64,000 bases of DNA. It comes from an uncultured Nitrososphaerales archaeon (lineage in GTDB: Archaea; Thermoproteota; Nitrososphaeria; Nitrososphaerales; Nitrososphaeraceae). The DNA lies in contig CAVQMO010000001.1 of assembly GCA_963713605.1 (NCBI GenBank), positions 768,001 through 832,000 of the forward strand. Reading direction: 5' to 3'. Made by a program: the position numbers. Shown in pieces: positions 42,001 through 45,000 of the stretch. How positions within the stretch are numbered: the first letter of the stretch is position 1; every line of letters starts with the position of its first letter.

Positions 42001-45000
42001 GAGGAATACGCCAATGGTCGTTCCGCGAATATTATAGTGGAAGGAAGCGAAGTGGGTAAAATAGGTGAAATTAGTGATTTCGTCAGGCAAAATCATAGGA
42101 TACGTGTGCCTGTGGCTGCCTATGAAATAGACCTTTCTCATTTTTTCAACTCATTTCGAAGATCAGTGTGAAATGTCCGTTATCTATGTGAACTACGAGC
42201 GTGATTAAGTGAGTATTTTTAGCGAAGTCATCATCGACGATTTCAATATCGTTGTAAATTTGAGCCTCAAGGGCTCCATCTACGCAGGTTGTAGTCGACT
42301 AGTTTTTATATTTGCGTGCACAATTACTGGAATTTTCAACCAGCTTTGTTAAATGCTTCTATGGTCTGACATAAATGAGAACTGGTATCGTACCCATTTG
42401 TTTCATCGTGCGGTCTTTCCAGAATACCAAAATCATGAGTACCTGTCTTTATAAGTAACGCTACATGTCAGCATAGGCCATTTAGTAAGGACTTTTGAAA
42501 TATTTTCTTGTTCAACATGGACCCATCGCTCAGACCGTAGTAGTATTATTCAAATATATACGTCTACAATCTCCCTTGTTATCCCCGTTAGAGAGTACGC
42601 TAGGAGGGAATACACATGAGTGTAACAGGCTACCAATGAATAGTAGTGGGTCAGAGGCGGGGGACATTTTATCAACATTTCGATTCACCTAAAATCACCT
42701 AAAATCATCTATCACATTTTTTATAATAGACTTTGCTTCAGAAGAAATATCATAATCGGCTAGCACTTTGGTTGGTTCTGTAAGCAAGAGTCTTCTGAAA
42801 TTTGGTTCGCTAGCTGCCCTAAGAAGTATTTCGCCCACAATTTTAACATCCCCGTTTCTGATTCCCAATCAGAATCATGCTATATATGGAATCTTAATTT
42901 GTGCCTTTCTACCTATAGTACACCACAAGAACATTATTATTCTGAAAATTTGATTCCGATTATGTATTGCGACTAGTAGACCGCTTTAAATGGTCCGATA
43001 ATGGCACAAGTAGAATTCAACCTCCAGAAAAGACTCTTCTCACAGTGGAGGGGATCACAGGAAAGATTGGGGTGACTCGAATTGGCAACATTACTCATCT
43101 GGACAGACTTGGTATTCCTAATTATTCAGTTGTTCTGCCCGGTACCGAGGATTACATTTGGGTCTATAGCGGAAAGGGTTTCACCATGAAGCAAGCCAGG
43201 ACAAGCGGCCTTATGGAAGCTATAGAACGATACTCTTCTTTGCCTGGCAGCTATGAGCGTCAGTTAATCAGAGGTTCATATTTTGAACTATCAAAAAGAT
43301 ATAATATACTTAGTTCAGACGATGTTTGCGAACCACTCTCTGTTCCATATAGGGATGATATGATAATGGATTACATTGAAGGCTTAGACCTGGTTTCATA
43401 TGAACAAATTCTGGTACCTGCCGCCTTGGCTTTGTTTAGGTACACTCAGCACGGTAAGGCTGTCAATCCGTTCTCTTTCTCTCACACGAACGGACTCGCA
43501 TCAGGAAATGTCTTGGAGGAGGCAATCTGTCATGCCTTATGCGAAGTTATTGAGCGAGATGCATCAAGTCTAGCCGAATTACGTTCGAGTGCCTTTCCAT
43601 TTCATCTATTAAAGATCCTGACAAACAAGTTTAAGGAGAGCGGGTACGCAATTAATGAAATTGCTTCCGATGCTATGGTTGATGAACCAAACTTGTTTCC
43701 TATGCTCGATTTAGAAGGTAATATCTTCCATCCGGCAAGAAATTTAGTGGATAGATTTAAGGCCGCAAATATTTCCTTGATAATCAAGGAGATTACAAGT
43801 GACGTGGGAATATCAACATTCAACGCTGCAAGCGTTGAATGGCTGACTCAAAATTACGGTTATCTTGCTGAAGGAACGGGCACACACCCAGACGCTAGGA
43901 TTGCGCTTGTCAGGGCAATTACCGAACTTGCTCAGACTCGAGCGGCCAACATCCAAGGTGCTCGAGACGATCTTCGCAAAATTAATTACGTGGGTGAAAA
44001 TTCAGAGGACAAGAGGTCGTGGCAATTTTTGAATTCAGATCGAAAGGTTCGTCTCTCAGGGGTCAGAGCTACTACAATCAAAACATACTAGATGATATAA
44101 GGTTGATCCTCAACCAGCTTAGAGCCGTGGGACTAAAGAGAGCTATTGTGGTGGATCTAACGGTACCGTGGATAGGAATTCCTGTCGTAAGGGCCATCGT
44201 ACCAGGTTTGGAAACATTCAAGTTCACAAAATCTGTAGTAGGTCAAAGGGCAAGGAATTATTTCAAGGCATGAAAAACATAATTGTTTTTGTCGGTCCTA
44301 GTTTAGATACAGAAAAGGCACGAAAGGTGTTGGAAGCGGACTATAGACCTCCAGCAAAGAAAGGAGACTTGATCAGATTGGTCATGTCGTTGGACGACAA
44401 AGAGACTGTGGTAGGGCTAATAGATGGATATTTTTTGCTTGATTATCCTCCCACGCCTATTGAAGTTTATCAACTGATAGTTAGACACAATACTGTAGTG
44501 ATAGGATCATCAAGTATAGGGGCCCTAAGAGCAGTTGAGCTAGAGAAATTCGGAATGATCGGTGTGGGAAAGATATTCCAATTATTCAAGACAGGGAGAC
44601 TAGATGCGGACGACGAGGTAGCTGTGACTTTTTCTCAGGACTTGTACCACCTTCAGTCTGAAGCGATGATAGATATTCGATATAACCTATACCTATCGCT
44701 GAAGAAAGGGTTTATCGATAAGGAAACCAAATACGCTATCACTAAGGTAGCCAAGGATATCTATTTTCCATTTCGAACATACCAAAACATTGTTGAAGAA
44801 ACCATTAGGAGATATCCCATTCTGGACGATAAAGTGAGACGCTTCGAAGCCTACATTTTTAAAAATAGGAAGAGTCTAAAAGAGATGGATGCTTTGAAAC
44901 TTATTGAGTATATCAGAGATATGTTTTAGAAATGTTCAGATTAGAATTCTAATGACAGGACAAAAGGAAAACTTTCAAAGCCCACACGGAATGGTTTAAT

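Follow-up and report, generated by a model that had tools for sequence, protein, structure and literature searches.

A 57-residue, leader-like protein as candidate partner of YcaO-TfuA in an ammonia-oxidising archaeon

In methanogens and ANME archaea, YcaO and TfuA thioamidate a glycine of McrA (MJ1094, 6pe3/6peu; PMC5589413). Reports of homologs of the pair in ammonia-oxidising archaea go back to 2017; their YcaO proteins fall within the same clade as the McrA-type enzymes of methanogens, and no substrate was named (PMC5589413). In 2021, the same homologs were counted as ‘BGCs’, again with no substrate named; in that source, the Nitrosocosmicus cluster (Fig S11) has just a ‘hypothetical protein’ beside YcaO and no precursor logo (PMC8120280). 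Its Table_1.XLSX may hold RiPPER-predicted precursors for 8 thaumarchaeal clusters. The literature search returned no paper that connects archaeal ammonia oxidisers with an NHLP-like protein and none pairing YcaO with Nitrososphaer-. What, then, do these enzymes act on or with in ammonia-oxidising archaea, which have no methyl-CoM reductase?

The question is raised by a locus of an uncultured Nitrososphaerales archaeon (assembly GCA_963713605.1, contig CAVQMO010000001.1). The window, to which all positions refer, is the whole stretch of 64,000 nucleotides that was analysed (contig positions 768,001–832,000). An archaeal AmoA was found in this genome, and no match to McrA (PF02249) was found in the 87%-complete assembly while both methanogen controls were recovered, in keeping with the lack of methyl-CoM reductase asserted in a preliminary description of the locus. 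The best candidate for what YcaO-TfuA acts on or with is the product of a 57-codon gene that lies head to head with ycaO. We read this mini-protein as a dedicated partner of the adjoining YcaO-TfuA, made only of the NHLP leader-like helical domain. As a conserved protein that is predicted to bind, it is a lead on the role of the enzymes in these archaea, and the open substrate question becomes a simple experiment on one 6-kDa protein. The features are:

42695–42868, minus strand: gene of the 57-aa, core-less, putative NHLP-clan mini-protein (TTG start, stop codon included)
42869–42966, no strand: AT-rich divergent intergenic region of 98 bp between the mini-protein gene and ycaO, read from the sequence
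42967–44273, plus strand: ycaO, TfuA-associated, McrA-type lineage (PF02624, 1.8e-55; TIGR03266, 224.2 bits against a cut-off of 365)
43594–43692, plus strand: ycaO codons 210–242, where the mini-protein is predicted to dock (from the interface of the predicted complex and the alignment to MJ1094/6pe3)
44270–44929, plus strand: tfuA, 219 aa (NF033432, 1.9e-61, 207.1 bits against a cut-off of 235.2; PF07812, 2.5e-33)

The mini-protein gene thus lies 98 bp from the ycaO start, close to the 100 bases and in the divergent orientation first described, and the position given for tfuA also holds. Both archaeal promoters presumably lie within the intergenic region. The 374-aa ORF that had been taken as ycaO is frameshifted: the assembled gene is split into two frames, one of 374 aa (42967–44091) and a C-terminal one of 84 aa (44019–44273). 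Two DNA runs (X1, X2), each from a different study, have contigs with an additional A after 44064; with this base, YcaO regains a length of 435 aa. The frameshift is probably an assembly error, because the missing A is present in both runs. YcaO measures 435–436 aa in 11/11 same-genus orthologs, and an intact ortholog has 435 aa; a pseudogene is rejected on the strength of the extra A and the intact orthologs.

The two enzymes resemble the McrA-modifying pair in several respects. TIGR03266 and NF033432 are the best-scoring families for them, tfuA follows and overlaps ycaO in both systems (here the start ATG of tfuA and the stop of ycaO share bases, as ATGA), and the reaction is presumed to be an ATP-dependent replacement of backbone oxygen by sulfur. 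Unlike that pair, they score below the equivalog cut-offs, and they belong to a genome in which McrA was not found. We know of no conserved mini-protein partner of the methanogen YcaO-TfuA.

Purifying selection shows the 57-aa ORF to be a genuine gene and not a product of chance. Across 55 pairs of 11 same-genus orthologs its pN/pS is 0.27, with values of 0.19–0.24 for codons 11–57 and 0.69 for codons 2–10, and the TTG start is kept in all 11. The protein is conserved over its whole length, and within the family sample its gene is a near-universal, single-copy core gene, not a patchy one. Neither a paralog nor a further gene of NHLP type was found in this genome. At the level of the phylum (301 genomes), the matches were partial and weak (E 5e-5 to 7e-3 per genome) and mostly within larger frames; these were left out of the ortholog counts.

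The evidence from sequence profiles points to membership in the NHLP clan, by a homology that is real, though sub-threshold, is reciprocally supported and is closest to the Os1348 type. The NCBIfam values given earlier were reproduced exactly, all of them below the cut-offs: NH_RiPP_Os17 (NF038399) at 2e-4 and 21.3 bits, where 40 are needed, TOMM_nitrile_2 at 6.2e-3, leader_NHLP (TIGR03793) at 0.032 and 14.1 bits, where 50.9 are needed, and nitrile_alph at 0.067. The mini-protein covers positions 3–45 of 63 in the Os17 model and 5–33 of 77 in the NHLP model, and it matches Frankia_peptide of Pfam at 3.7e-3. From 1.84 billion proteins, a profile of the archaeal family retrieved 66 (E<=1e-3). 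A reciprocal family scan took in 29 of these, and 23 score high enough to pass as NH_RiPP_Os17 or leader_NHLP, one of them lying right on the cut-off. Searched against the PDB, a profile of the same kind matched nitrile hydratase alpha chains (8e-9) and the NHLP precursor 9cjx (1.7e-4). Among the named clusters of the Atlas, the Os1348 family lies closest.

With the NHLP-clan RiPP precursors, namely Os1348 (NF038399; 6lk7; PMC7726476), leader_NHLP/proteusin (TIGR03793; 8tb1, 9cjx) and the Frankia peptide (PF14407), the mini-protein shares reciprocal profile matches and a helical domain of the leader type, homologous to theirs, that bears the signature A-x(3)-P-x-F-R...L...P...L. It differs from them in being an archaeal single-copy core gene without core, cleavage motif, exporter or further maturases. 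All 39 aligned members end 1–6 residues past helix 4, leaving no core, and show neither a Gly-Gly nor a Gly-Ala cleavage motif; their C-terminal tails vary from family to family.

The AF2 model of the mini-protein (pLDDT 89.2) is a domain of four helices (5–20, 22–30, 32–36 and 43–56) with a loop at 37–42. Foldseek against the PDB gave nothing at E<=0.001; the best E was 0.21, and the top rows, all above that threshold, were the DesB C-terminal domain, nitrile hydratase alpha, 8tb1 and 6lk7. The best Z of the VIA wide fold search was 5.2, tied with unrelated helical proteins. These searches are in weak agreement with the NHLP-type assignment.

The mini-protein very probably binds YcaO, judging from structure prediction. 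Their complex reached an ipSAE of 0.77 (runs 0.75, 0.77 and 0.78), the best of three controls reached 0.01, and the runs had at least 93% of contacts in common, with a pLDDT of 88 for the mini-protein. The mark applied to such predictions is passed by 116/157 solved complexes and by 2/215 mismatched pairs, a calibration that is only rough here because the complex was folded from custom unpaired alignments. The predicted interface is formed by helices 1 and 4 of the mini-protein, with no flexible segment, and by YcaO residues 210–242 plus only 355 and 433–434; the groove between the two helices, to which L15, A18, A19, I48 and V52 belong, clasps a YcaO helix (~212–222) and a turn (237–240). The most conserved residues of the mini-protein (A18, P22, F24, R25, I14, L28 and L36) lie within or beside this interface. 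The docking site falls in a segment (~209–256) that the M. jannaschii YcaO lacks, query residues 208 and 257 aligning with 188 and 203 of the 6pe3 chain and enclosing about 34 extra residues. The segment is also found in TfuA-less YcaO paralogs. We take the helix directly before it to be the carrier of the conserved active-site glutamates. Loop 37–42 and recognisable YcaO active-site residues are absent from the predicted interface list, so the model represents docking and not a catalytic pose.

What would the bound mini-protein do? The most likely reading, to which we give a probability of roughly 0.4, is that it is an intracellular thioamidation substrate. YcaO, with ATP, would activate one backbone amide in the docked protein, and TfuA would deliver sulfide from a ThiS-type thiocarboxylate. 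The thioamide-bearing product would remain in the cell as a modified housekeeping protein, comparable to McrA or uL16, and would not be cleaved and exported. The exposed loop at residues 38–42, x-[Y/F]-[D/N]-[I/V]-S, offers a candidate site and loosely resembles the thioamide site peptide G*-F-D-L-Q of M. acetivorans McrA (PMC5589413), a likeness of four residues for which chance could suffice. If thioamidated, the mini-protein would join McrA and uL16 as a natural protein modified by a YcaO in this way, and would be of a third kind: one that stands alone, derives from a leader, has the carrying of the thioamide as its sole known purpose and is kept as a core gene in three families of ammonia-oxidising archaea. 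That the thioamide might serve metal (e.g. copper) handling or redox sensing is pure speculation.

A precedent comes from E. coli, where YcaO thioamidates the ribosomal protein uL16, a folded housekeeping protein that was itself found as substrate by complex structure prediction (PMC13063428). Both cases would join a YcaO to one conserved folded protein that is recognised by an extended surface. The E. coli system differs in having no TfuA, in its YcaO subfamily (NF040716 gives just 27.8 bits on the YcaO here) and in a model that places the modified loop within the active site, a pose not seen here.

A somewhat less likely alternative is that the mini-protein acts as a leader in trans. Here, it would be a YcaO subunit that is not modified (an activator, specificity adaptor or regulator) and sits at the leader site, and the thioamide would be placed on another protein common to the three families. 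Several features favor this view: the whole mini-protein is a folded leader-like domain with no segment long enough to extend into an active site, its most conserved residues are found at or beside the predicted interface and not at a candidate modification site, its tails differ between families, and its PDB relatives (the nitrile hydratase alpha N-terminus and the DesB/LigA-like domain) serve as arms for interaction in enzymes of several subunits. However, the YcaOs of methanogens and E. coli work without such a subunit, and no second candidate substrate is conserved near ycaO-tfuA when the neighbours here are set beside those in genus g14 and family f3. We know of no natural stand-alone leader subunit of any YcaO. 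If the mini-protein is unmodified, it would be the first of this type to our knowledge; if it is modified, as in the substrate reading, it would represent a new class of proteins that bear a thioamide. In both cases, RiPP enzymology and the biology of soil nitrifiers would gain something new.

It is unlikely that the mini-protein is an unrelated neighbour, that is, a small helical protein such as a regulator that has only promoter region and phyletic history in common with ycaO-tfuA. The distribution of the two genes bears on this. After inspection, the class sample holds the mini-protein gene in 22/22 YcaO-positive and 0/179 YcaO-negative genomes. By family, it occurs in 13/14 genomes of f1, 5/5 of f3 and 2/2 of f5, while all other genomes lack it (0/114 in f2); YcaO has the same pattern. 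The co-occurrence spans three related families only, and the number of independent events is therefore small; it may stem from one family-level gain or loss. In the family sample, 115 of 121 genomes have the mini-protein gene and 120 have YcaO, and four of the six that seem to miss the former have a diverged ortholog of it, placed head to head beside ycaO. This order was said to be kept in every related locus, which is too strong: it is found in 97 of the 115 family genomes with a match, as well as in f5 and f3, and the spacing is 91–383 bp in 95 of the 97. The genes are unlinked yet both kept in genus g14 (13/13 genomes) and in g4 (1/1), lying 0.92–1.0 Mb apart in three closed genomes. Such unlinking, like the sub-threshold family matches, would suit an unrelated neighbour. 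Against it stand the absence of the gene from every YcaO-negative genome, the divergent order maintained across three families, the complex prediction with its low controls, and the fold, which belongs to a clan with enzyme-bound precursor leaders as its small members. The functional tie to YcaO-TfuA that had been proposed is upheld by the strict co-occurrence, the gene order and the predicted complex.

The surroundings of the locus bear on a further possibility. Besides the mini-protein gene, positions 40000–50000 contain PheRS alpha and beta, ycaO, tfuA, GT2 and CofG/CofH-like genes, and the PheRS, GT2 and CofG/CofH neighbours are replaced by others in g14 and f3. No peptidase-ABC exporter or other maturase was found in this interval, where five ORFs were family-scanned and the others judged from their translations. 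Bacterial TfuA-YcaO clusters likewise place a thioamide-forming pair beside a Nif11/NHLP-leader precursor; in contrast to the mini-protein, those precursors have cores and adjoin NHLP-type export/peptidase genes and maturases, as described in PMC8120280 (Figs S13, S16 and S20). A classical RiPP precursor, which would lose its leader and leave a short, thioamidated C-terminal peptide for export as a natural product, is highly improbable: its NHLP-clan relatives, e.g. Os1348, and the bacterial clusters lend it precedent (PMC7726476 and PMC8120280), but the few residues past the last helix, the missing cleavage motifs and export genes, and a near-universal, single-copy gene conserved over its full length speak against it. 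The label of a first ribosomal thioamide peptide, given at the outset, finds no support in a folded four-helix domain of this kind.

A ThiS-like sulfur carrier was also considered for the mini-protein and is ruled out by its helical fold, by the lack of a Gly-Gly end and by the three ThiS-family genes of this genome, which are located away from ycaO-tfuA. The separate ‘140-aa membrane protein’ reported behind GT2 corresponds to the C-terminal half of GT2, a gene that is cut by a second frameshift in the window, at about 45830–45848. Contigs from RNA libraries (runs X18 and X19, one study) leave the mini-protein gene uncovered and span 44097–44400 only, which corresponds to the end of ycaO and the start of tfuA, at a depth of about 2.

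The 57-aa open reading frame that lies divergent from ycaO and tfuA is a gene. A word-indexed protein search yielded 37 close relatives, 47–79 aa long, four of which carry a source name, in each case "…Nitrososphaeraceae archaeon", and their alignment is conserved along the whole length. Among 11 same-genus orthologs (55 pairs, a set without the unpublished genome G035), pN/pS is 0.27, with values of 0.19–0.24 for codons 11–57 and 0.69 for codons 2–10. All 11 share the TTG start, and the gene is single-copy in the window genome. The features of the locus are as follows.

42695–42868, minus strand: mini-protein gene, a 57-aa open reading frame with a TTG start (ORF listing)
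98 bp between the mini-protein gene and the ycaO start at 42967: AT-rich intergenic region between the divergent genes (sequence)
42967–44091, plus strand: first frame of ycaO, 374 aa
44019–44273, plus strand: C-terminus of ycaO in a separate frame, 84 aa
44270–44929, plus strand: tfuA, whose start overlaps the ycaO end by ATGA (NF033432, 207 bits; cut-off 235)
45066–45848 and 45835–46263: downstream GT2 glycosyltransferase, HpnB-like, split into 260-aa and 142-aa frames that overlap at 45835–45848

The identity of both enzymes, YcaO and TfuA, is clear from their family matches. The ycaO product has a YcaO domain (Pfam PF02624, 1.8e-55), and its best-scoring type is the McrA-thioamidation family TIGR03266 (224 bits; cut-off 365). 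McrA, the methyl-CoM reductase subunit targeted by YcaO-TfuA in methanogens, was not detected in the window genome, which is 87% complete and encodes archaeal AmoA. One sentence in PMC5589413 places the YcaOs of ammonia-oxidising archaea in the methanogen clade. PMC8120280 counts eight thaumarchaeal clusters, and in its supplementary Fig S11 only a "hypothetical protein" stands beside YcaO and there is no precursor. The literature search found no paper tying an NHLP-like protein (nitrile-hydratase-leader clan of modified-peptide precursors) to ammonia-oxidising archaea.

In YcaO orthologs the open frame is about 442 aa long. Two DNA runs, each from a different study, have contigs with an extra A behind 44064 that otherwise match the window exactly there; one run may be the window's own assembly sample. 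With this A added, ycaO is open through to 44273, which gives 435 aa and the ATGA overlap with the tfuA start. The gene is also intact, at 435–436 aa, in 11/11 same-genus orthologs (10/10 without G035), so the break is best read as an error of the assembly or as variation between strains, rather than as gene decay. In two same-genus genomes one unbroken ORF of 398 aa encodes the GT2 enzyme, and the "140-aa membrane protein" that the preliminary description listed as a separate gene is its C-terminal half. Counting ycaO and GT2, a stretch of about 2 kb thus contains two single-base frame breaks, a pattern that suggests homopolymer errors in the window assembly. A CofH-like ORF is 273 aa in another same-genus genome (L053, 3548–4369) and 420 aa in the window (47503–48765); the shorter length may likewise stem from a frame break, in that genome's assembly. 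Metatranscriptome contigs from two runs of one study match window positions 44097–44400 without differences. One of them spans the junction from ycaO stop to tfuA start and so hints weakly at co-transcription, with DNA carry-over possible.

The mini-protein falls under the curated cut-off of every family model. An NCBIfam scan reproduced the values reported in the preliminary description: NH_RiPP_Os17 at 2e-4 (21.3 bits against a cut-off of 40; residues 11–51 on model positions 3–45 of 63), TOMM_nitrile_2 at 6.2e-3, leader_NHLP at 0.032 and nitrile hydratase alpha at 0.067. Pfam added Frankia_peptide at 3.7e-3. When a profile built from the close relatives was run against 1.84 billion representatives, 66 proteins matched at E<=1e-3. 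The nearer matches are archaeal-type proteins of 57–64 aa, with the chain stopping directly behind the same final helix; more distant matches come from bacteria and have C-terminal extensions (Cys-rich tails, a recurrent ...DIRI end, doubled domains). When 29 of the 66 were scanned, 23 reached the NH_RiPP_Os17 or leader_NHLP curated cut-off. A profile of 39 diverse members matched nitrile hydratase alpha chains (8e-9) and the NHLP precursor 9cjx (1.7e-4) in the PDB, and among named Atlas clusters the Os1348 family is nearest. Os1348 is described in PMC7726476 as an 85-aa RiPP-type precursor from Pseudomonas sp. Os17. Because of these relatives, PDB matches and cluster, the homology to the NHLP clan is real, despite the failure at all curated cut-offs. 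AlphaFold2, using a 39-row alignment, gave a compact and confident model (pLDDT 89.2, pTM 0.70) with helices at residues 5–20, 22–30, 32–36 and 43–56 and one loop at 37–42. Fold searches with it returned a weak echo of the clan, tied with unrelated helical proteins. A18, P22, F24 and R25 are invariant across the family, and the tail behind the last helix is 1–6 residues long and differs between families. The mini-protein consists of a leader-type domain and nothing more.

The small gene and ycaO occur together. In a family sample of 121 genomes from 18 genera, the small gene was matched in 115 and YcaO in 120; the sample includes the unpublished genomes G035, G077 and G099, all three of which have both genes head to head. 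In four of the six genomes lacking a small-gene match, all of one genus (g5), ycaO faces a diverged 50–64-aa ortholog in the same head-to-head order. For the remaining pair, G111 and G108, the YcaO match begins at residue 80 or 50 and YcaO is probably cut by the contig end. In a class sample of 201 genomes, the small gene was confined to families f1 (13/14), f3 (5/5) and f5 (2/2), with no match in any other family, including 0/114 in the large sister family f2. YcaO was found in f1 (14/14), f3 (5/5) and f5 (2/2) and in none elsewhere. The sole discordant genome is a g5 genome with the diverged ortholog; after inspection, the small gene is present in 22/22 YcaO-positive and 0/179 YcaO-negative genomes. 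As three related families are involved, few independent events stand behind this co-occurrence. A phylum-level search of 301 genomes gave only weak, partial small-gene matches, none of which was counted.

The head-to-head pair had been described as present in every related locus. It holds in 97 of the 115 small-gene-positive family genomes, and the wording was too strong since the two genes are unlinked in genera g14 (all 13 genomes) and g4 (its single genome); in the remaining four the small gene lies at a contig end. The two matches are 91–383 bp apart in 95 of the 97; the two exceptions have gaps of 796 and 877 bp. The divergent order also occurs in f5, with gaps of 94 and 530 bp, and in f3, where a gene for a ~330-aa membrane protein lies in between at 3/5 loci; at one of the remaining loci the genes are separated by about 1 kb with no listed gene, and at the last the small gene is on another contig. 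In three closed g14 genomes the small gene and ycaO are 0.92–1.0 Mb apart. In a g14 genome, the small gene adjoins Asp-box-repeat and surface-protein genes, and ycaO-tfuA has different neighbours. Secreted Asp-box (BNR-like) repeat genes adjoin the mini-protein gene where it is apart from ycaO (g14, f3), and are a recurrent second neighbour at these loci in other genomes:

L031, 4884–5658: Asp-box-associated mini-protein locus
L036, 5402–7463: Asp-box-associated mini-protein locus
L040, 3571–5576: Asp-box-associated mini-protein locus

Since the window ycaO is broken, complex prediction used the two cognate proteins from a genome of the same genus (L002) in which both are intact. The alignments were our own (A3, 25 rows; A4, 39 rows), with unpublished genomes left out. 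The YcaO–mini-protein complex scored 0.77 (runs of 0.75, 0.77 and 0.78), and the best of three controls scored 0.01. In a calibration that is approximate for such alignments, the mark was reached by 116/157 solved complexes and 2/215 mismatched pairs. The runs agree on at least 93% of contacts, with a partner pLDDT of 88. In the model, the folded mini-protein clasps a YcaO helix, using helix 1 and the conserved A-A-S-E-P turn (residues 3–29) together with helix 4 (44–56); on YcaO, the predicted interface comprises residues 210–242, 355 and 433–434. Archaeal YcaO residues 208 to 257 align to only 188 to 203 of the M. jannaschii YcaO chain (MJ1094, PDB 6pe3). Thus, compared with that enzyme, the archaeal one has about 34 extra residues, which hold the predicted docking site. 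This segment is not exclusive to the tfuA-linked copy, as it is also found in TfuA-less YcaO paralogs of some family genomes. No part of the mini-protein is in a catalytic pose in the model.

Given that all the evidence is computational, support for the partnership is good, and binding of the mini-protein to YcaO is highly probable. As to its role, the leading reading, with a probability of roughly 0.4, is that the mini-protein is an intracellular protein thioamidated by YcaO-TfuA. A substrate of these enzymes must exist and the mini-protein is the only conserved candidate. To our knowledge, each characterised small NHLP-clan member is a modified substrate of its neighbouring enzymes. In addition, a precedent is offered by E. 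coli YcaO, reported in PMC13063428 to recognise a folded housekeeping protein over an extended surface. The mini-protein could instead be a stand-alone "leader in trans", that is, a non-substrate subunit of YcaO, a reading that is only somewhat less probable. This is favored by the lack of any flexible core, by the variable tails and by the overlap of the interface with the most conserved residues, and the same three points count against a substrate role. It is improbable that the mini-protein is an unrelated neighbour of ycaO-tfuA, and where the two genes are unlinked both are still kept and conserved. A classical exported RiPP is very unlikely; none of the aligned family members has a Gly-Gly motif, and window positions 40000–50000 contain no exporter, peptidase or further maturase. 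If the mini-protein is itself thioamidated, a weak lead toward the site may come from its exposed loop, x-(Y/F)-(D/N)-(I/V)-S at residues 38–42, which is outside the predicted interface. The loop is reminiscent of the G*-F-D-L-Q site in McrA of M. acetivorans (a peptide quoted in PMC5589413), a four-residue likeness for which chance could suffice.

A second YcaO paralog of 457–473 aa, without TfuA, occurs in some family genomes and is absent from the window genome; the copies listed here all lie on the minus strand:

L043, 3643–5040: TfuA-less YcaO paralog
L044, 3505–4923: TfuA-less YcaO paralog
L045, 3407–4810: TfuA-less YcaO paralog
L046, 1874–3244: TfuA-less YcaO paralog

This may be a separate peptide-modification locus. 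The paralog is flanked by a ~450-aa membrane protein and several paralogous 200–280-aa proteins, and at least two of the loci have a small convergent ORF ending ...TPGD.T..GH (L045, 2967–3161; L044, 3227–3364).
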